From Isurus oxyrinchus (taxonomy: Eukaryota), in NCBI GenBank assembly GCA_026770705.1, contig JANJGN010000546.1:62001-126000 (forward strand): a DNA stretch of 64,000 nucleotides, in the 5' to 3' direction. Position numbers and translations under genes: made by a program. Under the pieces are notes generated by a model. The model worked only from the letters and a program-made list of their open reading frames with translations, was not told the origin of the DNA and searched no databases. Each line of letters starts with the position of its first letter. Within the stretch, counting starts at the first letter, position 1. Positions 2,103-63,479 of the stretch are shown piece by piece.

Positions 2103-2480
2103 CAGAAACCTGAAGCTGGGTTACAGGGTAATAGTTATGGCTCGGACGATTGCCAAATTTTATCGTGAAAAAATAAGGTCCTGCATCTTCCCGTCTGATG
2201 TTGTTTATAATCAGGGAACAGTCGCCATCTTTCAGGTCTCCAGACAGCCGGGTCCGATGGCGGAACCGTGGTAACTCGTGACTGTGACCCTTGGAGTGAA
2301 AGGCTGTAGACCATTTAGACCATTTGTTCCGTATGTAGCTTCTCATTTTCCAGATTCCGACATGTGGTTTCTTTACCAAATCTGATGGATAACTGTAATG
2401 ACATGGAATCTGTACACACGAACCTTCCTGCGCTGTCACCTCTCGTGGAGTGTCACCTTTCCACTCTTGTGACAATCCAA
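2103..2480 (-). CDS. Siglec-like gene A, V-set Ig exon (phase 1-1, 378 nt)
   Basis: ccccAG acceptor and G|GTAAGT donor. Siglec Cys pattern GSCVQIPC...DCSL with no F-strand Cys. F strand reads GPYFFTIK (Thr at the essential Arg position). Confidence 0.9.
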
Positions 2481-6724: not shown

Positions 6725-6764
6725 CTTGGAGAAGTGACATGAGGAAGTAGGATTTCCCGATCAT
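6725..6764 (-). CDS. Gene A signal-peptide exon, coding part MIGKSYFLMSLLQ (whole exon 6725-6806)
   Basis: ATG at 6764 and CAAG|GTAAT phase-1 donor that joins the V exon in frame (LLQ-VGLSQEW). Confidence 0.85.
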
Positions 6765-11758: not shown

Positions 11759-11898
11759 TCAAACAGTCTGTCGACTTCCTTTCACTGTTTGTCTCTCCCA
11801 GACACAGACTCCAGTGATAGTGATAACCACAGCCACAAGGAATATCACAGCTCGTATTCCCAGGATCAGGATCACGTGCAGAATCTCTCCTCCACTGT
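11759..11898 (-). CDS. Gene B transmembrane/terminal exon: (D)SGGEILHVILILGIRAVIFLVAVVITITGVCVWERQTVKGSRQTV*
   Basis: Pyrimidine tract plus TCTAG acceptor, phase 1. Hydrophobic helix with internal Arg. TGA at 11759-11761. Confidence 0.85.
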
Positions 11899-13018
11899 CT
11901 AGAGAACACACAGAAAGAAATCATCACTGACTCTCCGCTTTCAATCTCTCACTCTGGCTGAACAATCAAGCTTCATATCACTGCAACATTTGCTGTAATA
12001 TTGACTCATCCACTGGGATTCAATGTGGAATGAATGTTTTCATTGTAAACACTCGAAGAGTGGACAATCGGAACTTTCCCGTTAGCGTGGAACATTGGTG
12101 AGAATGGATCATTGTGCTGTTGGACTCCCTGTCCAATGTTTCTCTCCATCACTGTGTACAGGATTGTGCTGTAGAAAATTCTGGAAACGTTTAGTGCAGG
12201 GTGGAAATCCATCTCGGACGCGTGTGTGATTCGGGCAGGATCGAGATGGACTCCCCCACGGACTTACACCCCCCGCTTAATAAACAGTTCCAATCTTTAC
12301 CCAGAGAGAGGGGAGAATGTGGAACTCGCTCCCACTGGGAGTGGTTGAGGTGAGTAGTAGCGAATTAGGAAGTGAAATTGCTTGAAAAGCTGGGAGATGC
12401 AAGGGTTAAGTGCAACCGTGCCACCACTGGTGGGAGAGTGTAACTACAGCATAACGTTTACATAGGCAATCCCCATTATGAACATGGACATTGGACATCA
12501 TGTGAAATATGTGCACTGGAAAGCTGAGAACTTGATGTAAGCTTTTCACCAACAGGAATTCCCTTCCTAAACCTCTCCACCTCTCACTTACTCTCAGATA
12601 CTCAAACAAAATTTCACACAAAATCACGTAAGGACGAGTTGGGACAGGTGACTGGTCAAAGGGTTAGGTTTCAGGAAGCTTCTTAAAGGAGGATAGAGAG
12701 TTGGAGAGGCAGAGAGTATCTGTGAGTATCTCTGTGCATCTGAGTGTCTGTAGTAGACTTTGAAATTTCCATATTCTTCCATTAATATGAAAGGGAACAC
12801 AAATCCCAGAATCCAGGTCAACTCTCCGGTGCAACACTGAAGGAGGTCAGGAAACCCACAGGGCAGTATGTGATAGTGTATTTGTTTGTGAGTGTGTCTT
12901 TGTGTGTGCTCATAGATGTGGGATTGTGTGTCTGCAGCTGTCTATTTAGGTCTGTATATTTATGTGTGTTTGTGTAGTGTTTGAATCTAAGAGAGATGTT
13001 GAAGTCTGTGTAACTCAC

Positions 13019-15104: not shown

Positions 15105-15469
15105 CAGAAACATGAAGCTGGGTTACAGGATAGTAGTTGTATCTTTTCCTGCCGTCAAATTCTATCCTGAAAAAATAAGGTCCTGCATCTTCCCGTCTGA
15201 TGTTGTTTATAATCAGGGAACAGTCGCCATCTTTCAGGTCTCCAGACAGCCGGGTCCGATGGTGGAACCGTGGTAACTCGTGACTGTGATCCTTGGAGTG
15301 AAAGGCAATGGGAGAACCCAATTTGTGTGTTTCTTTATTACACCAGATTCCATCTCGTGGTTTGTTTTCCAACTCTACTGGATAACTGTAACGAAATGGA
15401 ATCTGTACACAGATTCCTGCGCTGTCACCTCTCGTGGAGTGTCACCTTTCCACTCTTGTGACAGTCCAG
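15105..15469 (-). pseudogene. Frameshifted V-set exon (B2) inside gene B
   Basis: 365 nt against 369 nt in paralogs: 4-nt deletion near 15410, TAG at 15375-15377, B-strand Cys changed to Phe. Splice sites intact. Confidence 0.88.
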
Positions 15470-18549: not shown

Positions 18550-20370
18550 CAATACTGAGGGAGAGCAGCACTGTCAAAGGGTCATTACTGAGGGAGTGTT
18601 GCACAGTTGGAAGCTCTGGAACAAGGGACTGCAGCATTATCTGAGGGTCAGTCGGGAGGGAGGTATTCAATGTTGGATTGTAAGATCTGAGGGAGCGCTG
18701 CAGAGTTGGAGCTTCAGTAGTGAAGGAGTGCTGCACTGTCAGAGGGTCAGTACTGAGGGAGTGCTGCACTGTCAGAGGGTCAGTACTGAGGGAGTGCTGC
18801 ACTGTTGGAGGGTCCGTACTGTGGGAGTGCTGCACGGATGGAGGATCAGTACAGAGAGATTTCTAAACTGTTGGAGGATCAGTACTGAGAGAGTGCTGCA
18901 CTGTCAGAGGGTCAGTACTGAGGGAGTGCTGCACTGTCAGAGGGTCAGTACTGAGGGAGTGCTGCACTGTCAGCGGGTCAGTTCTGAGAGAGTGTTGCAC
19001 TATCAGAGGGACAGGACTGAGGGAGTGCTGCACTGTCAGAGGGTCAGTACTGAAGGAGTGCTGCACTGTCGGAGGGTCAGTACTGAGGGAGTGCTGCACT
19101 GTTGGAGGGACATTATTGAGGGAGTGCTGCGATGTCGGAGGATCAGTACTGAGGGAGTGCTGCACGATCAGGGGGTCAGTACTGAGGGATTGCAACACTG
19201 TTGCAGGGTCTGTACTGATTGAGTGCTGCACTGTTGGAGGGTCAGTACTAAGGGAGTGCTGCACTGTCAGAGGGTCAGTACTGAAGGAGTGCTGCACTGT
19301 CGGAGAGTCAGTACTGAGGAGGTGCTGCACTGTCGGAGGATCAGAACTGAGGGGGTGCTGCACTGTCAGAGGGTCAGTACTGAGGGAGTGCTGCACTGTC
19401 AAAGGGTCAGTACTGAGGGAGTGCTGCCCTGTCAGAGGGTCAGTATTGAGGGAGTGCTGCACAGTCAGAGGGCCAGTACTGAGGGAGAGCTGCACTGTCG
19501 GAGGGTCAGTACTAAGGGAATGCTGTACAGTCAGAGGGTCAGTACTGAGGGAATGCTGTACAGTCAGAAGGTCAGTACTGAGTGAGTGCTGCACGGTCAG
19601 GGGGTCAGTACTGAGGGAGTGCTGCACTGTCAGAGGGTCAGTACTGAGGGAGTGCTGCACTGTCAGAGGGTCAGTACTGAGGGAGTGCTGCACTGTCAGG
19701 GGGTCAGTACTGAGGGAGTGCTGCACTGTCAGAGGGTCAGTACTGAGGGAGTGCTGCACTGTCAGAGGGTCAGTACTGAGGGAGTGCTGCACTGTCAGGG
19801 GGTGAGTACTGAGGGAGTGCTGCACTGTCAGAGGTTCAGTATTGAGTGAGTACTGCACTGTCAGAGGGTCAGTACTGAGGGAGTGCTGCACTGTCAGGGG
19901 GTCAGTACTGAGGGAGTGCTGTACTGTCAGAGGTTCAGTTTTGAGTGAGTGCTGCACTGTCAGAGGGTCAGTACTGAGGGAGTGCTGCACTGTCAGGGGG
20001 TCAGTACTGAGGGAGTGCTGCACTGTCAGAGGGTCAGTACTGAGGGAGTGCTGCACTGTCAGAGGGTCAGTACTGAGGGAGTGCTGCACTGTCGGAGGGT
20101 CAGTACTGAGGGAGTGCTGCACTGTCAGGGGGTGAGTACTGAGGGAGTGCTGCACTGTCAGAGGGTCAGTACTGAGGGTGTACTGCACTGTCAGAGGGTC
20201 AGTACTGAGGGAGTGCTGCACTGTCAGGGGGTCAGTACTGAGTGAGTGCTGCACTGTCAGAGGTTCAGTACTGAGGGAGTGCTGCACTGTCAGAGGGTCA
20301 GTACTGAGGGAGTGCTGCACTGTCAGAGGGTCAGTACTGAGGGAGTGCTGCACTGTCAGGGGGTGAGTAC
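18550..20370. repeat. 33-bp satellite array (ACTGAGGGAGTGCTGCACTGTCAGAGGGTCAGT)
   Basis: About 55 tandem units. Confidence 0.95.
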
Positions 20371-21737: not shown

Positions 21738-22106
21738 CAGAAACGTGAAGCTGGGTTACAGGGTAATAGTTATGGCTCGGACCATTGTCAAATTCTATTC
21801 TGAAATAATAAGTTCCTGCATCTTCCCGTCTGATGTTGTTTATAATCAGGGAACAGTCGCCATCTTTCAGGTCTCCAGACAGCCGGGTCCGATGGCGGAA
21901 CCGTGGTAACTCGTGACTGTGATCCTTGGAGTGAAAGGCAATGGGAGCCCAGGGAATCTGTTCCTCATTATTAAACCAGAGTCCACCTCGCGGTTGGCTT
22001 TCCAAATGTGATGGGTAACTGTAATGACATGGAATCTGTACACACGAACCTTCCTGCGCTGTCACCTCTCGGGGACTGTCACCTTTCCACTCTTGTGACA
22101 GTCCAA
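21738..22106 (-). CDS. Gene B V-set Ig exon with the essential Arg intact (GTYYFRIE)
   Basis: 369-nt open exon, canonical splice sites, Siglec Cys pattern. Confidence 0.92.
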
Positions 22107-25899: not shown

Positions 25900-28800
25900 A
25901 CGCAGTACTGAAGAGGTGCTGCACTGTCAGAGGGTCAGTACTGAGGGAGTGCTGCACTGTCAGAGGGTCAGTACTGAGGGAGTGCTGCACTGTCAGAGGG
26001 TCATTACTGAGGGAGTGCTGCACTGTCAGAGGGTCAGTACTGAGGGAGTGCTGCACTGTCAGAGGGTCAGTACTGAGGGAGTGCTGCACTGTCAGAGGGT
26101 CAGTACTGAGGGAGTGCTGCACTGTCAGAGGGTCAGTACTGAGGGAGTGCTGCACTGTCAGAGGGTCAGTACTGAGGGAGTGCTGCACTGTCAGAGGGTC
26201 AGTACTGAGGCAATGCTGCACTGTCAGAGGGTCAGTACTGAGGGAGTGCTGCACTGTCAGAGGGTCAGTACTGAGGGAGTGCTGCACTGTCGGAGGGTCA
26301 GTACTGAGGGAGTGCTGCACTGTCGGAGGGTCAGTACTGAGGGAGTGCTGCACTGTCAGAGGGTCAGTACTGAGGGAGTGCTGCACTGTCAGAGGGTCAG
26401 TACTGAGGGAGTGCTGCACTGTCAGAGGGTCAGTACTGAGGGAGTGCTGCACTGTCAGAGGGTCAGTACTGAGGGAGTGCTGCACTGTCAGAGGGTCAGT
26501 ACTGAGGGAGTGCTGCACTGTCAGAGGGTCAATACTGAGGGAGTGCTGCACTGTCAGAGGGTCAGTACTGAGGGAGTGCTGCACTGTCAGAGGGTCATTA
26601 CTGAGGGAGTGCTGCGCTGTCAGAGGGTCAGTACTGAGGGAGTGCTGCACTGTCAGAGGGTCAGTACTGAGGGAGTGCTGCACTGTCAGAGGGTCAGTAC
26701 TGAGGGAGTGCTGCACTGTCAGAGGGTCAGTACTGAGGGAGTGCTGCACTGTCAGAGGGTCAGTACTGAAGCAATGCTGCACTGTCAGAGGGTCAGTACT
26801 GAGGGAGTGCTGCACTGTCAGAGGGTCAGTACTGAGGGAGTGCTGTACTATCGGTGGGTCAGTACTGAGGGAGTGCTGCACTGCCAGAAGTTCAGTACTG
26901 AGGGAGTGTTGCACTATCGGTGGGTCAGTACTGAGGGAGTGCTGCACTGTCAGAGGGTCAGTACTGAGGGAGTGCTGCACTGTCAGAGGGTCAGTACTGA
27001 GGGAGTGCTGCACTGTCAGAGGGTCATTACAGAGGGAGTGCTGCACTGTCAGAGGGTCAGTACTGAGGGAGTGCTGCACTGTCAGAGGGTCAGTACTGAG
27101 GGAGTGCTGCACTGTCAGAGGGTCAGTACTGAGGGAGTGCTGCACTGTCAGAGGGTCAGTACTGAGGGAGTGCTGCACTGTCAGAGGGTCAGTACTGAAG
27201 CAATGCTGCACTGTCAGAGGGTCAGTACTGAGGGAGTGCTGCACTGTCAGAGGGTCAGTACTGAGGGAGTGCTGTACTATCGGTGGGTCAGTACTGAGGG
27301 AGTGCTGCACTGCCAGAAGTTCAGTAGTGAGGGAGTGTTGCACTATCGGTGGGTCAGTACTGAGGGAGTGCTGCACTGTCAGAGGGTCAGTACTGAGGGA
27401 GTGCTGCACTGTCAGAGGGTCAGTACTGAGGGAGTGCTGCACTGTCAGAGGGTCATTACTGAGGGAGTGCTGCACTGTCAGAGGGTCAGTACTGAGGGAG
27501 TGATGCACTGTCAGAGGGTCAGTACTGAGGGAGTGCTGCACTGTCAGAGGGTCAGTACTGAGGGAGTGCTGCACTGTCAGAGGGTCATTACTGAGGGAGT
27601 GCTGCACTGTCAGAGGGTCAGTACTGAGGGAGTGATGCACTGTCAGAGGGTCAGTACTGAGGGAGTGCTGCACTGTCAGAGGGTCAGTATTGAGGGAGTG
27701 CTGCACTGTCAGAGGGTCAGTATTGAGGGAGTGCTGCACTGTCAGAGGGTCAGTACTGAGGGAGTGCTGCACTGTCAGAGGGTCATTACTGAGGGAGTGC
27801 TGCACTGTCAGAGGGTCAGTACTGAGGGAGTGCTGCACTGTCAGAGGGTCAGTACTGAGGGAGTGTTGCACTGTCAGAGGGTCAGTACTGAGGGAGTGCT
27901 GCACTGTCAGAGGGTCAGTATTGAGGGAGTGCTGCACTGTCAGAGGGTCAGTACTGAAGCAATGCTGCACTGTCAGAGGGTCAGTACTGAGGGAGTGCTG
28001 CACTGTCAGAGGGTCAGTACTGAGGGAGTGCTGTACTATCGGTGGGTCAGTACTGAGGGAGTGCTGCACTGCCAGAAGTTCAGTACTGAGGGAGTGCTGC
28101 ACTGTCAGAGGGTCAGTACTGAGGGAGTGCTGCGAAGTCAGAGGGTCAGTACTGAAGCAATGCTGCACTGTCAAAGGGTCAATATTGAGGGAGTGCTGCA
28201 CTGTAAGAGGGTCAGTACTGAGGGAGTGCTGCACAGTAAGAGGGTCAGAATTGAGGGAGTGCTGCACTGTCAGAGGGTCAGAAGTGAGGGAGTGCTGCAC
28301 TGTCATAGGGTCAGTACTGAGTGAGTGCTGCACTGTCAGAGGGTCAGTACTGAGGGAGTGCTGCACTGTCAGTGAGTCAGTATTGAGGGAGTGCTGCACT
28401 GTCAGAGGGTCAGTATTGAGGGAGTGCTGCACTGCCAGAAGTTCAGTACTGAGGGAGTGCTGCACTGTCAGTGAGTCAGTATTGAGGCAGTGCTGCACTG
28501 TCAGAGGGTCAGTACTGAGGGATTGCTTCACTATCGGTGGGTCAGAACTGAAGGAGTGCTGCACTGTCAGTGAGTCAGTATTGAGGGAGTGCTGCACTGT
28601 CAGTGAGTCAGTATTGAGGGAGTGCTGCACTATCGGTGGGTCAGTACTGAGGGAGTGCTGCACTGTCAGAGGGTCAGTACTGAGGGAGTGCTGCACTGTC
28701 AGAGGGTCAGTACTGAAGCAATGCTGCACTGTCAGAGGGTCAGTACTGAGGGAGTGCTGCACTGCCAGAAGTTCAGTACTGAGGGAGTGTTGCACTATCG

Positions 28801-30712
28801 GTGGGTCAGTACTGAGGGAGTGCTGCACTGTCAGAGGGTCAGTACTGAGGGAGTGCTGCACTGTCAGAGGGTCAGTACTGATGGAGTGCTGCACTGTCAG
28901 AGGGTCATTACTGAGGGAGTGCTGCACTGTCAGAGGGTCAGTACTGAGGGAGTGCTGCACTGTCAGAGGGTCAGTACTGAGGGAGTGCTGCACTGTCAGA
29001 GGGTCAGTACTGAGGGAGTGCTGCACTGTCAGAGGGTCAGTACTGAGGGAGTGCTGCACTGTCAGAGGGTCAGTACTGAAGCAATGCTGCACTGTCAGAG
29101 GGTCAGTACTGAGGGAGTGCTGTACTATCGGTGGGTCAGTACTGAGGGAGTGCTGCACTGTCAGTGAGTCAGTATTGAGGGAGTGCTGCACTGTCAGAGG
29201 GTCAGTATTGAGGGAGTGCTGCACTGCCAGAAGTTCAGTACTGAGGGAGTGCTGCACTGTCAGTGAGTCAGTATTGAGGCAGTGCTGCACTGTCAGAGTG
29301 TCAGTACTGAGGGATTGCTTCACTATCGGTGGGTCAGAACTGAAGGAGTGCTGCACTGTCAGTGAGTCAGTATTGAGGGAGTGCTGCACTGTCAGAGGGT
29401 CAGTACTGAGGGAGTGCTGTACTGCCAGAAGTTCAGTACTGAGGGAGTGCTGCACTGTCAGAGAGTCAGTATTGATGGAGTGCTGCACTGTCAGAGGATC
29501 AGTACTGAAGCAATGCTGCACTGTCAGAGGGTCAGTTTTGAGGGAGTGCTGCACTGTCAGAGGGTCAGTACTGAGGGAGTGCTGCACTGTCAGAGGGTCA
29601 TTACTGAGGGAGTGCTGCACTGTCAGAGGGTCAGTACTGAGGGAGTGCTGCACTGTCAGAGGGTCAGTACTGAGGGAGTGCTGCACTGTCAGAGGGTCAG
29701 TACTGAGGGAGTGCTGCACTGTCAGAGGGTCAGTACTGAGGGAGTGCTGCACTGTCAGAGGGTCAGTACTGAAGCAATGCTGCACTGTCAGAGGGTCAGT
29801 ACTGAGGGAGTGCTGCACTGTCAGAGGGTCAGTACTGAGGGAGTGCTGTACTATCGGTGGGTCAGTACTGAGGGAGTGCTGCACTGCCAGAAGTTCAGTA
29901 CTGAGGGAGTGCTGCACTGTCAGAGGGTCAGTACTGAGGGAGTGCTGCACAGTAAGAGGGTCAGTACTGAAGAGGTGCTGCACTGTCAGAGGGTCAGTAC
30001 TGAAGCAATGCTGCACTGTCAGAGGGTCAGTATTGAGGGAGTGCTGCACTGTCAGAGGGTCAGTACTGAAGCAATGCTGCACTGTCAGAGGGTCAGTACT
30101 GAGGGAGTGCTGCATTGTCAGAGGGTCAGTACTGAGGGAGTGCTGCACTATCAGAGGGTCAGTACTGAGGGAGTGCTGCACTGTCAGAGGGTCAGTACTG
30201 AGGCAATGCTGCACTGTCAGTGGGTCAGTATTGAGGGAGTGATGCACTGTCATAGGGTCAGTACTGAGGGAGTGCTGAACTGTCATAGGTTCAGTACTGA
30301 GTGAGTGCTGCACTGTCAGAGGGTCAGTACTGAGAGGGTGCTGCACTGTCAGAGGGTCAATGCTGAGGGAGTGCTGCACTGTGGGAGAGACAGTACTGAG
30401 GGAGTGCTGCACTGTCGGAGGGTCAGTACTGAGGCAGAGCTGCACTGTCAGAGGGTCAGTACTGAGGGAGTGCTGTACTAATGGTGGGTCAGTACTGAGG
30501 GAGTGCTGCACTGCCAGAAGTTCAGTACTGAGCGAATGCTGCATTATCGGTGGGTCAGTACTGAGGGAGTGCTGCACTGTCAGAGGGTCAGTACTGAGGA
30601 AGTGTTGCACTGTCAGAGGGTCAGTACTGAGGGAGTGCTAAACTGTCAGAGGGTCAGTACTGAGGGAGTGCTGAACTGTCAGAGGGTCAGTACTGAGGGA
30701 GTGCTGGACTGT
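25900..30712. repeat. 4.8-kb 33-bp satellite array with higher-order periodicity
   Basis: About 145 units; variant monomers recur at 429-bp and 792-bp spacings. Confidence 0.97.
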
Positions 30713-32886: not shown

Positions 32887-33003
32887 TTATAAATTCCCAT
32901 AAACAGAATCCTTGGCAAATTCACAGTTTGCGTAAAGATCATCATCTGTATCAGGACTGACTCCGCGGTTAGATTTCATTTCCAGATCCTTCTCATCTTT
33001 CTT
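32887..33003 (-). CDS. Orphan terminal cytoplasmic exon KKDEKDLEMKSNRGVSPDTDDDLYANCEFAKDSVYGNL*
   Basis: TCTGTTTCTATTACAG acceptor, phase 0, 39 codons including TAA, two Tyr motifs. AATAAA on minus at 31922-31927. Confidence 0.7.
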   Translation of the reverse strand, partial: KKDEKDLEMKSNRGVSPDTDDDLYANCEFAKDSVYGNL

Positions 33004-33119
33004 CTGTAATAGAAACAGAAATGATCAGAGTGACAATCAGAGTGATCAGTGTTTAGTATTATTGATCCAAATCAAAAATTCCACCCACAATACATACATT
33101 AATTATTGATACTATTGGA

Positions 33120-43375: not shown

Positions 43376-43505
43376 TGAAGTGTCTGCCTGGATTACGGGC
43401 TATGTGGAGAAAGAACCTACATTGACATCACACCTTTCACATTCTCAGTGTCTTTCAAAGTGCTTCACAGTCAGTCTAAGTTAACTGATCTGTATTTGTT
43501 TTTAG

Positions 43506-43787
43506 ACGCACCACGGAATCTCTCAATTACTTCTCCAGATATGATTAACGCTTCATCAATCAGTATAATTGAGTGGAATTCTGCAGTGATAATCTGCTCT
43601 GTCTAGAGCTCCCCAGCTTTTAACCTGATGTGGCGACATCTTAATGTCCCAATGAACAGAACAAGTTCCAACAATGAGCTGTGGTTGGTGATTCCTCACG
43701 TTACATCCAGGGATACTGGAGACTATCAGTGTGTGGCAGAGAATGAACATGGAGCAGTGGAGGGATTCATAACCATCACTGTGGAAT
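43506..43787 (+). pseudogene. Gene C third Ig exon with in-frame TAG (43604-43606)
   Basis: (Y)APRNLSITS...IICSV*SSPAFNLMW...DTGDYQCVAENEHG...TITVE with TTTAG acceptor and GTGAGT donor. Confidence 0.9.
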
Positions 43788-45492
43788 GTGAGTTACACAG
43801 ACTTTAATATTTCTCTCATCTCCGAACACATATACTCAGATGCTCTCCCACGCACACACACACACAAGCACTCACAAATGTACAAACCCTAAGTGCATGC
43901 ACACACACAATCCCACACTCATGAGCACACAGAAAGACACACTCACACACAAACACAGTAGTACACACTTCCCTGTGAGTTACCTGACCTCCCTCAGTAC
44001 TGCACTGGAGAGTTCTCCTGGATTCTGGGATATGTGTTCCCATTCATATTTATCGAAGAATATCCAAATTACAAAGTCTATTCCAGAAACTCACATGCAC
44101 AAAGATTCCAACAGATACTCCCCACTTCTCCGTGTCTCTCTCTCCTCCTTTAAGAAGCTTCCTAATCCCGAACTCTTGCCTGCCCTAACTCCTCCTTATC
44201 ATGCCCTGTGTCAAATTTTTTGTGTATCTGAGAGAAAGGGAGAGATAAGGAAGTTTAGGAAGGGATTTCCTGTTAGTGAAGAGCTTACTTCTTTTTCTCA
44301 CCTTTCCAGTGTTCAGTTTTGCCATCATGTCCAATGACCCTGTTTATAATGGGGGCATCCTATGTAAACGTCACACTGTCTTTACATCCTCCCACCAGTG
44401 GTGGCACTGTGGTGCTTAAGCTTGCACCTCCCAGCTTTTCAGCCAACTTCACTTCACAATTTGCTACACATGCTGTAAGGTCATCAAAATTAACATATAT
44501 CAAATGGTAGATTTGATAATACAGTTTATTGAAAGGTTCATCCGCGCTCTGGGAAGGGTTTACACTCTCCAGGAAGCAAAAATAGGCTGGATGTTGGAGA
44601 GTTCATCTTTTCCCAGAGAGTAGGGATCCTCGGGAATGTGCTGTCAGTGGGTGTGGTGGTTGCTGTCTCTCTGTTGCCTTCAAGAGGGATCTGGAGTGGT
44701 TACTAACTGGGGGAGAGATCATGGAAGCGGAGAATGGTACAGCACAGGAGGAGGCCATTCAGCCCATTGAGCCTGTGCCAGGTCTTTCAATGTTCTATCC
44801 AATCAGATCCACTAACCACCACACCACTTTGCCCCCATCTTCTTCCTTCAAGTGTTTATCCAATTTCCCTTTTGAAAGTTCCTATTGAATCTGCTTCCAC
44901 TGCCCTTTCAGGCAGCACCTTCCAGATCACAACAACTCGCTCTGTCAAAACAAATTCTCCTCATCTCCCCCTCCGGTTCGTCAATCTGTGTCCCTCTGGT
45001 TACCGACCCTCCTGCCCCTTAAATACATCGATACTGTTCACCTCAACCACTCCCTGTGGGAGCGAGTTCCACATTCTCCCCTTTCTCTGGGTAAAGATTG
45101 GAACTGTTTATTAAGTGGGGCGTGTAAGTCCGTGGGGGAGTCCATCTCGATCCTGCCCGATTCGCACACGCGTCCGAGATGGATTTCCACCCTGCACTAA
45201 ACGTTTCCAGAATTTTCTACAGCACAATCCTGTACACAGCGATGGAGAGAAACATTGGACAGGGAGTCCAACAGCACAATAATCCATTCTCACCAATGTT
45301 CCACGCTAAGGGGAAAGTTCCGATTGTCCACTCTTAGAGTGTTTACAATGAAAACATTCATTCCACATTGAATCCCAGTGGATGGGTCAATATTACAGCA
45401 AATGTTGCAATGATATGAAGCTTGATTGTTCAGCCAGAGTGAGAGATTGAAAGCGGAGAGTCAGTGATGATTTCTTTCTGTGTGTTCTCTAG

Positions 45493-45677
45493 ACAGTGGA
45501 GGAGAGATTCTGCATGTGATCCTGATCCTGGGAATACGAGCTGTGATATTCCTTGTGGCTGTGGTTATCACTATCTTCTGGAGTCTGTGTCTGGGAGAGA
45601 CAAACAGTGAAAGGAAGTCGACAGACTGTTTGAAGCTTTGTACAGCAACAATCTGGTCAGTCAGTGTGGACAAATAA
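45493..45677 (+). CDS. Gene C transmembrane/terminal exon with TM Arg and a frameshifted tail (..VITIFWSLCLGETNSERKSTDCLKLCTATIWSVSVDK*)
   Basis: Inverted paralog of 11759-11898 with a 1-nt indel after the TM. Confidence 0.8.
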
Positions 45678-55688: not shown

Positions 55689-56404
55689 CTGCAAAAAGAG
55701 AGAATTTATCAGGGAGAAAGTGAGAGGAGGATTGAGGGAGAGGGAGAGAGAGAGAGAGAGGTACAGGAGAGAGAGGGGGAGGAAGACAGACTTGCATTTC
55801 TCTAACGCCTTTCACCACATCCCAAAGCATTTCACAGCCACTGAAGGATGTTTTTGAAGTGCACTCACACTGTAGGAAATGTGGCAGCTGATTTGTGCAC
55901 AGCAAGATCCCACAAATAGCAATGTGATCATGGCCTAGATCATCTGTTTTTGGTGATGTTGGTTGAGGGATAAATATTGGTCCCAGGACACCGGGGAGAA
56001 CACCCCCTGCTCTTCCTCCAAATAGTGGCTGTGGGATCTTTCACACCCGCCCGAGAGGGCAGACGGGGGACTCAGTTTAATGTCTCATTCAACATTGTTG
56101 CGCTCCCTCAGTACTAACCCTTTGACACTGCAGCACTCCCTTAGTATTAACCCTTCGATAGTGCTGCGCTCCCTCAGTACTGTCCCTCCGTCAGTGCAGC
56201 TCTATTTCAGTACTAACCCTTCGACACAGCAGCACTCCCTCAGTACTGACCTCCGACAGTATAGCACTCCCTCAGTACTGTCCCTCCAATAGTGCAACTC
56301 TTCCACACTACTGACCCTCTGAGAGTGCAGCACTCCCTCAGCACGGAGCGTTGATCTACATTATGGGACTGAATTCCCTGGAGTGAGACTCAGACCAGTG
56401 ATTT

Positions 56405-57915
56405 AGGTAGGGTTGTGGGGGCTGGAGGAGGTTACAGAGATAGGGAGGGCTGTAGAGGCTGTAGGAGGTTACAGAGAAAGGGAGGGTTGTAAGGGCTGTA
56501 GGAAGTTACAGAGATAGGGAGGGTTGTAGAGGCTGTAGGAGGTTACAGAGATAGGGAGGGTTGTAGGGGCTGGAGGAGGTTACAGAAATAGGGAGGGCTG
56601 TAGAGGCTGTAGGAGGTTACAGAGATAGGGAGGGTTGTAAGGGCTGTAGGAAGTTACAGAGATAGGGAGGGTTGTAGAGGCTGTAGGAGGTTACAGAGAT
56701 GGGGGAGTTGTGGGGGCTGGAGGAGGTTACAGAGGTAGGGAGGTGTGTAGGGGCTGTAGGAGGTTACAGAGATGGGGTGGTTGTGGGGGCTGGAGGAGGT
56801 TACAGATGTAGGGAGGGTTGTAGAGGCTGGAGGAGGTTACCAAAATAGACACTGCTGTAGGGGCCACAGTAGGTTACAGAGATAGGGAGAGTTATAGTGT
56901 GGAGAGTTCAGGAGGATTGTAGGGGCTGGAGGAGGTTACAGTGATTGTGAGGGTTGTGGGGCCTGGAGGATTTTAAAGAGATAGGGAGGGTTGTAGGGTC
57001 TGGAGCAGGTTACAGAGATAGGGAGGGTTGTAGGGTCTGGAGCAGGTTACAGAGATAGGGAGGGTTGTAGGGTCTGGAGCAGGTTACAGAGATAGGGAGG
57101 GTTGTAGGGTCTGGAGGAGGTTACAGTGATCGTGAGTGTTGTGGGGCCTGGGGGAGGTTACAGAGATAGGGAGTGTTGTGGGGACTGTAGGAGGTTACAT
57201 AGATAGGGAGGGTTGTCGGGTCTGGAGGAGGTTACAGAGATAGGGAGGGTTATAGGGACTGGAGGAGGTTACAGAGATAGGGAGGGTTGTAGAGACTGTA
57301 GGATGTTACAGAGATAGGGATTGTTGTAGGGGCTGGAGGATGTTACAGAGATAGGGAGGGTTGTAGGGGCTGGAGGAGGTTACAGAGATAGGGAGGGTTG
57401 TAGGGGCTGGAGGAGGTTACAGAGATAGGGAGGGTTGTACGGGCTGGAGGAGGTTACAGAGATAGGGAGGGTTGTAGGGGCTGGAGGAGGTTACAGAGAT
57501 AGGGAGGGTTGTAAGTCCTGGTGGAGGTTACAGAGATAGGGATTGTTGTAGGGGCTGGAGGAGGTTACAGAGATAGGGAGGGTTGTAGCGGCTGGAGGAG
57601 GTTACAGAGATAGGGAGGGGTGTAGGGGCTGGAGGAGTTTACAGAGATAGGGAGGGTTGTACGGGCTGGAGGAGGTTACAGAGATAGGGAGGGTTGTAGG
57701 GGCTGGAGGAGGTTACAGAGATAGGGAGGGGTGTAGGGGCTGGAGGAGGTTACAGAGATAGGGAGGGTTGTAAGGCCTGGTGGAGGTTACAGAGATAGGG
57801 AGGGTTGTAGGGGCTGGAGGAGTTTACAGAGATAGGGAGGGTTGTAAGGCCTGGTGGAGGTTACAGAGATAGGGAGTGGCTGAGGAGGGATTGAAAACAA
57901 GAATGAGAATTTCAG
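56405..57915. repeat. 37-bp minisatellite array with an adjoining L2 ORF2 C-terminal stub, in hepcidin intron 1
   Basis: About 40 units; the stub translates on minus as EILILVFNPSSATPYLCNL. Confidence 0.92.
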
Positions 57916-61764: not shown

Positions 61765-63130
61765 CTGTAAACTTGTTGTGATACTGTAACTGCCTCTTTG
61801 GTTTCATTCAGCTGAATCTTCAGCTCTTCAGTCTCTTCCTTGTATCTCTTGCCTTCCTCCTGGAACATTGGACATGGTTGGGTCTTCCCTGCCAACTGTT
61901 TCTTCAGTTTGCTCAGAGCGGCACAGAATTCGCTTTCTTTCTCTTCAGGATTTTCCAGTGGAACCAACTCTGACCTGAGGGACACTTGCAGCCTGTGAGG
62001 ATGCTTCAATTCTTCAAACTCATTCCGAGATACACTCTCATATTCCCCCAGCAACTCAGCAACTCCTCCAGTGAAACATTTCAGAGCAGCTGAGCTTGGT
62101 TTTCTGGAACCAGTCTCGGCCCAGAAGACTAGGGCCCTCACCTGTCGCTATGATCACTGGAAGCTGGGCTGTCTGCTGCCTGTAGGACACAGGTACTGGG
62201 ATGAGGTCCTTTCCCTGTATGGATTCTCCAGTGTGTGTCTTCAGCTGATCCATTGTTGGCTCTAAATTCAGCGTCTGGGTTCCTTCATTTAGCTGTTTAA
62301 ATGTGGGCTCTTCCACCACTGTGTCTGAGGCTCCCGTATCTGCCCCATTACTAGTGGCTGCCCATTCACTTGGGTTGTGATGGTTATAGGTTCAGTTTTT
62401 ACCACTGTGACATTGGACAGGGAATAGACATCGGTATCAGCAGCTTCAGGCTCTGTGATATTATTCACTTCCATCATGTTGGTGCACTGCCTGATGGGCT
62501 GTCTCGATTTCACCCTGCATTGCTTTATTACCTGCCCCTTTCTTGTGGCAGTGATGGCATTCTGCCCCCTTGAACCTGCAGGTGTCCAGTACGTGCTCAA
62601 TGCCCCCCACATCGAGAACAGGCCAACTTCGGAGTTGCTGCTGAAATACTCCCACGAAGCCTTTTAGTTTCTGGAGCGGCAGAGACTGTCTCTCGCTTGG
62701 CGGCTGTCTCTCTCTCTCTCTCTCCAGTTTGAGCCTCACGCCCGGTGGTTGGTTCCTGTCCCAGCTGAGGACTGGCGCCATGTTGTACATCCTGTAAATC
62801 CCGCCAGTCTCTCCCAGCACTTTCCATGCCTGGCGCTATTTCCATAGTGCGCTTCAAATCGATGTCGGCTTCTGCGAGTAAACGGCTCTGAATGGCGTTG
62901 GGGTGAACGACACAAACCAATCGGCCCCGCAACATGTCATTGAGTGTGTCTCCGAGGTCCCAGTGCTCAGTCACCTGCTTCCACTTCATTGTATAGGTTG
63001 CGATGGACTCTCCCTGGGCCCTTACTCTGGAGTTAAACTTAAACCTCTGCATTATTACCCACGGCTTCAGCTGAAAATACATCTTCATGAGGTCGACTAA
63101 TTGGTGAAAAGATTTAGAATTGGGTGCAAT
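61765..63130 (-). mobile_element. Ty3/Gypsy gag-protease remnant
   Basis: IMQRFKFNSRVR, DMLRGRLVC, CSRCGGH knuckle, GEGPSLLGRDW; same family as 33120-36490. Confidence 0.85.
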
Positions 63131-63415
63131 ACACGTCACTGTCTTCAGCTCTGAGACTGTCAATCCTCACCGAACAATTCTTCCCTTCCAAGTCGCCGAT
63201 TATTTTAGCACGTCCCACGAATGTGGCCATCCCATAATTGGGATCTTTGGTGTATGTGACGGTATATTTCCATCTATACCAATATTTATACCAAGCTCCG
63301 TGCAGTGCTGTGTAAGAGTGGGAAGGAAAGTCAAAGCTACACGGAATAACCACACAAGAGCTGCTGATGGCCCTCAGAGGCAGCGCCTTCATAGACCATC
63401 CCTCTGACGTCACTC
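63130..63415 (-). pseudogene. Gene D: MAG/Siglec-like V-set exon truncated at the F strand
   Basis: TTTCAG acceptor, then SCVVIPCSFDFP..HGAWY..FVGRAKIIGDLEGKNCSVRI..DSDVY, then direct fusion to gag sequence and TAA at 63114-63116. Confidence 0.82.
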
Positions 63416-63479
63416 CTGAAAGGCAACAAGGGAAGAGACAGGACATCAAAAAGCAGAATATTACTTCAATGGAGAGAGG

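Follow-up and report, generated by a model that had tools for sequence, protein, structure and literature searches.

Loss of the essential arginine from the outermost V-set domain, with its retention in inner domains, in a clade of shark Siglec-like genes

RESULTS

Organization of gene A and of its neighbours

The window analysed here is a 64-kb stretch of DNA (G000:C546:62001-126000) from the 5-Gb genome of Isurus oxyrinchus. It carries the first exons of a Siglec-like gene, gene A, together with paralogs B, C and D. In the following list, positions are those of the window.

2103..2480, minus strand: V1 exon of gene A, N-terminal V-set domain of Siglec fold; 378 nt, phase 1-1, AG/GT ends
2158..2160, minus strand: Lys107 of V1, a Glu in most paralogs
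2164..2166, minus strand: Thr105 (ACG) of V1, at the essential-arginine position of the F strand
2299..2352, minus strand: long basic Trp-rich C-C' region of V1 (W43-F60, including Lys44); DSSP strands 39-49 and 52-61 in the model
2416..2418, minus strand: Cys21 of V1, the Siglec inter-domain cysteine, aligned with the CD33 'LCV' cysteine
6725..6764, minus strand: leader exon of gene A (MIGKSYFLMSLLQ, GT donor)
About 11762-11899: TM exon of paralog B with an intramembrane Arg, preceded by C2 exons
15105..15469, minus strand: V exon of paralog B, Arg retained, frameshifted, 365 nt
21738..22106, minus strand: V exon of paralog C, Arg retained (YYFRIE), 122 aa
38531..38899, plus strand: V exon of paralog D, Arg retained
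43505-43786 and 45492-45611, plus strand: C2 exon with a stop and frameshifted TM-Arg exon of gene D

The remainder of gene A lies to the left of the window.

G000:C546:60759-60391: V2, YFFRIE, Arg retained
G000:C546:57405-57037: V3, YFFRIE, Arg retained
G000:C546:56224-55928, 51408-51127, 50214-49933, 48064-47789 and 46832-46539: five C2 exons
G000:C546:45617-45521: TM exon, uncharged
G000:C546:44797-44716 and about 43730-43485: tail exons
G000:C546, about 42335-40505: duplicate tail, frameshifted

Gene A reads, in order, leader, V1 with Thr, V2 and V3 with Arg, five C2 domains, an uncharged TM segment and a tail with a FLYANP motif that ends in TEYAQI, with splice sites and phases mutually consistent along the gene. 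Of the three tandem V-set domains, V1 lies farthest out. The features expected of a Siglec beyond its V domains, i.e. C2-set domains, a single TM segment and tyrosine motifs, are all found, one of the C2 exons having a stop. The original prediction, made from the window alone, was that gene A has lost the essential arginine; this is wrong at the level of the gene, because V2 and V3 both read YFFRIE. Missing or dead downstream exons were named with it as what would speak against it. A search beyond the window located V2, V3, the five C2 exons, the TM exon and the tails, which rules out the first possibility, and the second is partly borne out by two lesions: an in-frame TGA in the second C2 exon (G000:C546:51280) and the frameshift in the duplicate tail exon, which is the only place where a canonical ITIM was located in gene A.

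These lesions raise a real possibility, compatible with the other readings considered below and independent of what holds for the clade to which the gene belongs, that gene A is a dying copy, whose C2 stop would lead to decay of the transcript or to a secreted V1-V2-V3-C2 fragment. The TGA reads CAA in a near-twin locus (C150:463433), and the neighbours B and D are likewise broken. Against it, neither the first tail nor any splice site is damaged, and the stop-bearing C2 exon is symmetric (282 nt, phase 1-1), with a near-duplicate after it, so that its skipping would preserve the frame. Both lesions can, judging from the exon structure, be bypassed by splicing, and a full-length gene A receptor requires that the stop-bearing exon be skipped. 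Furthermore, the near-twin, which is either an allele or a paralog and has two V exons, has a V1 identical to that of gene A, is 97-99.7% identical to it in blocks over about 30 kb and carries neither lesion, the corresponding C2 and tail exons being open. The tandem duplication of the two cytoplasmic exons (G000:C546:40505-44800) was also seen at many other loci; through it, a gene has a choice of two terminal tails, with FLYANP in one and a canonical I/L-x-Y-x-x-I motif in the other.

The V1 domain of gene A

The V1 exon is an open frame whose translation contains GPYFFTIKFGN. Its Thr105 is the aligned equivalent of the Arg in 'SYFFRVE' of Siglec-5 and 'TYNFRFE' of sialoadhesin. The three other V copies of the window keep the Arg, with YFFRIE in B and D and YYFRIE in C, so that the Thr codon was read correctly in the original prediction; the frameshift of the B exon, in contrast, was absent from it. 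The greater length of V1 in an open frame (125 aa against 122 aa in C and D, the three additional residues falling in WKMRSYIRNKWSKWSTAF, in the C-C' region) was likewise well described. V1 is also more basic as a whole, its net charge being +8 where C has -4 and D has -5. Chance and an error of sequencing or assembly are ruled out as the source of the Thr codon, the same ACG being present in 43 genomic copies.

V1 matched the Pfam V-set (1.7e-11) as well as Ig_CD22, and its top sequence matches in the PDB were Siglecs. Its AlphaFold model (pLDDT 89) had MAG and sialoadhesin as best fold matches, with TM scores of 0.80-0.85 at 26-29% identity. All three types of match agree on an N-terminal V-set domain of Siglec fold; the canonical arginine expected of such a domain is replaced by Thr105 in V1 and is found in V2 and V3. 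From its sequence, we class V1 of gene A as Siglec-like and not as a canonical sialic-acid-binding N-terminal domain.

The B-E intra-sheet cysteines, C26 and C87, and also C21, are invariant in the 43 aligned rows, and the F-strand position is a Phe, not a Cys. Siglecs have aromatic residues next to the site on the A and G strands: here, Trp6 of the A strand is retained, and the G-strand position aligned to a Tyr of Siglec-5 is His114 in V1 and V2 and Tyr in V3. Two lysines, Lys44 and Lys107, flank the arginine site; the strand register would place Lys107 on the same face as position 105. Lys107 is present in all 55 extracted exons with Thr or Met at position 105 (see below), and the Arg-Ile-Lys combination is seen in named proteins of other sharks. 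As for the C-C' region, the model predicts an extended beta-hairpin, not a loop.

A clade of 56 loci with Thr or Met

A 30-base F-strand pattern gave 526 exact matches in the whole genome and none when reversed. The codon at the arginine position was AGR (Arg) in 473 of them, ACG (Thr) in 43, ATG (Met) in 3, AAG (Lys) in 6 and AGC in one. To the 46 Thr/Met pattern loci were added the 10 with Thr or Met among 19 further close matches, chosen from 150 that were scored, which brings the number of Thr/Met loci to at least 56 (48 ACG, 1 ACA and 7 ATG). We then worked with 153 extracted V exons, including those of 55 of the 56 loci, plus one Arg-reverted copy added by hand.

The Thr/Met exon is, like that of gene A, the first V exon of its gene. 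An Arg-bearing second V lies downstream of it at 56 of 56 loci, at about 3.4-4.4 kb, and is intact at 52. No V or first-C2 exon was found in 20 upstream stretches of 6.5 kb, 18 of which belong to Thr/Met loci; 15 of these 18 contain a leader (two with a changed ATG, one without a donor), and at another Thr/Met locus a leader, the sixteenth, is found 7 kb upstream. In the tree, a single branch separates the 40 distinct Thr/Met sequences from the 76 others, and the grouping was not rejected when codons 105-107 were masked (p-AU 0.93). On these sequences the loss of the arginine had one origin and marks one clade, which rules out a loss specific to gene A. Thr is not fixed within it: Met is found at seven of the 56 loci, and one nested, broken copy has Arg. 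This copy (G000:C385:393529) reads Arg-Ile-Lys with an AGG codon, is nested among Met copies, has lost its donor and is followed by a V2 truncated at its 5' end; its Arg is likely to be a reversion. Stops interrupt four of the 56 V1 exons (4 of the 35 distinct long V1 sequences) and the donor is lost in one, a frequency much like that among the exons with Arg, where 8 of 94 are broken.

The closest named proteins to V1 of gene A are basking- and white-shark 'Siglec-12/13-like' models, with up to 82% identity. In 86 named elasmobranch proteins the motif was matched 129 times, always without Thr (118 Arg, 10 Lys and 1 Ser), six proteins giving no match; similarly, a search for proteins of near length returned three named shark proteins, with Arg in all and Thr in none.

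Loop, charge and selection

The original prediction tied the long basic Trp-rich region to the loss of the arginine. This link does not hold: six distinct exon sequences in this genome combine the same long region with Arg, and so do basking-shark and white-shark proteins. Its presence in Arg-bearing sister copies and in other lamniform sharks indicates that the loop is older than the loss, and rules out that the two arose together. Compared with the Arg-bearing long sisters, the clade shows Y44K, R105T, E107K, D109G and often G111R, the order of substitutions being deduced solely by comparing living sequences. The mean charge is +7.6 (4 to 10) in the clade, +1.0 (0 to 3) in the Arg-bearing long sisters and -3.6 in the short V exons. 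Basic charge is nevertheless independent of the loss of the arginine, since three basking-shark long-loop domains range from +4 to +7 with Arg retained.

The pairwise pN/pS ratio was 1.84 for the clade (codon bootstrap 1.00-4.12; 31 distinct stop-free sequences) and 0.62 for the short Arg/Lys exons (0.40-1.00; 54 sequences); pairs are non-independent and conversion is likely, and the interval for the clade touches neutrality. The distinct clade variants comprise 60 non-synonymous and 17 synonymous changes, near the neutral ratio of 2.5-2.9. Amino-acid variants are almost absent at C26, W43 and C87. The Thr/Met clade is released from the usual constraint, and new function and drift fit the pN/pS data alike.

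Relaxed constraint is accordingly to be taken seriously as an explanation, and we regard it as possible, if not strongly so. By this account V2 supplies the sialic-acid site, V1 has become a redundant spacer that lost its Arg in a single mutation, and copies of it then spread along with the gene units through segmental duplication and conversion, no new ligand being gained. The lower bound of 1.00 and the nearly neutral 60:17 speak for it, as do the Met and reverted Arg codons within the clade, the single origin of the loss and the greater age of the loop; with no Thr among the 129 matches in named elasmobranch proteins, the change also looks recent. It accounts less well for an Ig core that has been kept, with nearly invariant C26, W43 and C87 and V1 frames open at 52 of the 56 loci, for the charge-raising changes around the site (Y44K, E107K, D109G and G111R), and for the near-identity of the same V1 across opposing tails, to which we return below.

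V1 and V2 in one chain

An extra cysteine in the BC loop distinguishes inner from outer V domains. It is present in 67 of 68 exons that have another V upstream and in none of the 55 Thr/Met exons; among named multi-V proteins, it is found in 35 of 45 later domains and in none of 26 first domains. In CD33, an inter-domain disulfide joins C36 to C169 (PMC6669322). In the relative P0014, the V cysteine and the second cysteine of the first C2 align with their CD33 equivalents. The cysteines by which a Siglec ties its V domain to the next one thus have apparent counterparts here, C21 being invariant. As the BC-loop cysteine of inner V domains mirrors the C2 cysteine that pairs with C36 in CD33, a V1-V2 disulfide, between Cys21 of V1 and the extra BC-loop cysteine of V2, is likely on sequence grounds. 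The first V of gene D bears the BC-loop cysteine typical of inner V domains.

Transcript evidence came from run X1 (presumed RNA, one sample). In one of its contigs (137 nt, depth 6), the 3' end of a clade V1 continues across the intron position into the beginning of a V2, of which it covers 31 letters; subtraction of depths indicates that ACG-ATA-AAA is retained in it. A second contig (124 nt, depth 14) is identical to the loop region of another clade copy, L119. The two are 8 and 2 letters away from gene A, respectively, and so derive from paralogs or from a related species. Three of the four runs examined at the codon (X3, X5 and X19) had only Arg; in six runs (X3, X4, X5, X7, X13 and X19), no Thr-bearing piece was present among the matches listed, which is uninformative as to expression.

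Tails and family size

A TM type could be assigned at 46 of the 56 clade loci, nine of the assignments being made from positions in the pattern lists. The GRDSS type (26 loci) is followed, where read, by an ITSM/ITIM-like tail and the SNEWK type (10 loci), where read, by a tail with SVYGNL; 7 loci have a TM-Arg exon with a short tail, and 3 the same TM exon with Gln for Arg. The last are three short-loop Thr V1 genes (L079, L089 and L113), where CGA has become CAA. Going by these motifs, the tails of the clade would signal in opposing directions, inhibitory and activating. Near-identical V1 domains are found on both sides: the V1 of C52:1751043 (TM-Arg) is identical (0 nt) to that of C71:1127084 (ITSM tail), and the V1 of gene A is 2 nt away from those of C52:314129 (TM-Arg) and C52:745349 (SNEWK). 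ITSM-tail and TM-Arg genes with V1 domains 0-2 nt apart present the paired-receptor layout described for Siglecs (PMC6288428).

With up to one mismatch allowed, the leader pattern gave 479 matches in the genome, and the patterns for the three types of TM exon gave 223, 228 and 109 (560 in all); the reversed controls gave none. Among the 100 listed matches to the second type of TM exon, 98 have the intramembrane Arg codon. One contig of 4.2 Mb (C52) has 54 + 66 + 31 = 151 exact TM matches listed, so that a family this large cannot be put down to duplicated haplotypes. The counts point to a Siglec-like family of several hundred, about 500, genes, a total that is inflated by haplotype duplicates and pseudogenes. 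For comparison, Siglecs number fifteen in humans and four are regularly present in fish (PMC7226832).

On the same contig, two stretches (G000:C52:1875446-1886984 and 2282212-2294308) have six and seven V exons about 2.0-2.3 kb apart, all with Arg codons, which suggests that some receptors carry as many as seven V domains in tandem; one basking-shark model has seven. A much longer contig (G000:C34:15142486-15272606) contains a leader, a V exon (FRIK) and two SNEWK-type TM exons, and is possibly the chromosomal anchor of the cluster.

DISCUSSION

A non-canonical tip on receptors that may still read sialic acid

Loss of the essential arginine abolishes canonical sialic-acid binding in Siglecs. 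The R119A mutant of CD33, for instance, no longer binds (PMC6669322). V1 of the clade would, on this basis, be devoid of canonical sialic-acid binding. The multi-V receptor as a whole is likely to have kept it through V2 and V3, if their arginines are a guide. A changed ligand for V1 of gene A is plausible from its sequence, and to that extent the switch of ligand put forward in the original prediction is partly supported, V1 being both deprived of the canonical Arg and more basic; the two arguments that went with it, loss at the level of the gene and a link with the loop, are not.

The reading that we favour, with a confidence that stops a little short of even, is that the V1 tip of the clade binds a ligand other than sialic acid, probably microbial or polyanionic, and that the inner Arg-bearing V domains still read sialic acid. 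The basic tip would be a pathogen-facing surface common to inhibitory and activating receptors, behind which V2 and V3 would go on reading sialic acid, V1 and V2 being held together by the putative disulfide between Cys21 and the BC loop. We infer from the near-identity of V1 on opposing tails that the tip came to be shared by the two kinds of receptor through duplication or gene conversion, in the manner of the primate pairs Siglec-5/14 and Siglec-11/16. Pathogen pressure could have driven both the loss of the arginine and the gain of lysines. Two observations on other Siglecs are of interest here: Siglec-5 has a bacterial protein ligand that it recognises independently of sialic acid (PMC6288428), and the arginine is changed in both Siglec-5 and Siglec-14 of apes (PMC7379906).

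It is improbable that V1 has remained a binder of sialic acid, or of a related nonulosonic acid, with Lys107 or Lys44 taking over the salt bridge. In favour of this, Lys107 is fixed in the clade and sits on the same strand as position 105, two residues away, Trp6 is retained on the A strand and, according to a review, the canonical Arg is dispensable for binding in some bacterial Siglec-like proteins (PMC13358205). Against it, Arg-Ile-Lys also occurs in genes that keep the arginine, so that Lys107 need not be compensatory, and binding is absent from the Arg mutants of CD33, of Siglec-XII and of ape Siglec-5/14 (PMC6669322, PMC6288428, PMC7379906).

The favoured reading, that of a non-sialic-acid tip in front of sialic-acid-reading domains, can be carried further. 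A single chain would then have two specificities, an Arg-less basic tip for microbial or polyanionic ligands and inner heads for sialic acid; with the tip mounted on both inhibitory and activating tails, the receptors would act as two-input sensors of self and non-self in a shark system of several hundred genes, an arrangement not described for any Siglec. In this full form we consider the proposal rather doubtful.

Relation to known systems

Receptors without the arginine, such as human Siglec-XII, are usually read as retired; the second V of Siglec-XII, too, is not known to have the Arg. Human Siglec-XII has two V-set domains, with R122C in the first, a signalling tail that has been kept and common null alleles (PMC6288428, PMC7379906). 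The shark clade resembles it in the loss of the essential Arg from the first V and the retention of a signalling tail, and differs from it by inner V domains that keep the Arg, by two or three V domains, and by 56 loci with three types of tail instead of one gene. The second parallel is with great-ape Siglec-5 and Siglec-14, inhibitory and activating partners with near-identical outer domains that have both lost the Arg (PMC6288428, PMC7379906). There, the single V means that the whole receptor loses binding, whereas in the shark a back-up V keeps the Arg, in dozens of genes. In Siglec-11 and Siglec-16, finally, extracellular domains are homogenised across opposing tails by gene conversion (PMC5701461); unlike the shark clade, they form one pair only and are not reported to have lost the Arg.

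The closest relatives are the shark and ray RefSeq proteins called 'Siglec-12/13-like', 'CD33-like' or 'MAG-like', names that are automatic labels and not statements of orthology. They belong to the same family, with tandem V domains and the same C2, TM and tail exons, but differ by the absence of Thr in their 129 motif matches. MAG (Siglec-4) and sialoadhesin are the best fold matches, but have a single V domain, with Arg. What links the shark family to the CD33-related Siglecs here is sequence similarity. A literature search covering mainly open papers found nothing on an expansion of Siglecs, or on tandem-V Siglecs, in sharks.

The loss of the Arg in a first V (Siglec-XII) and in both members of an ape pair is thus already known, as is the Siglec-like nature of the relatives according to their RefSeq labels. 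What sets the present case apart is the Arg-bearing back-up domains, the scale of 56 loci and the size of the family. With the loss spread over dozens of genes that have a back-up Arg domain, 'retired or re-purposed' becomes a testable question: this genome has V1 domains that are nearly alike and that naturally carry Thr, Met or Arg. If this is confirmed, a large Siglec-like family of paired receptors would be a main innate recognition system of sharks.

Other features of the window

Three further features were seen in the window. A SNEWK-type tail exon (DDLYANC...SVYGNL) lies at 32890-33006 on the minus strand; no same-strand upstream partner exons were seen in the window, and it was likely left there by an inversion. 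At 63130-63416, also on the minus strand, is a truncated V exon of a different, sialoadhesin-like type (YKYWYRWKY, 66% to a Heptranchias model), which ends after EDSDVY, before the F-strand position. Long minisatellite arrays, with units of about 33 and 37 bases, lie between exons at 25900-30712, 18580-20370, 1-900 and 56400-57880.
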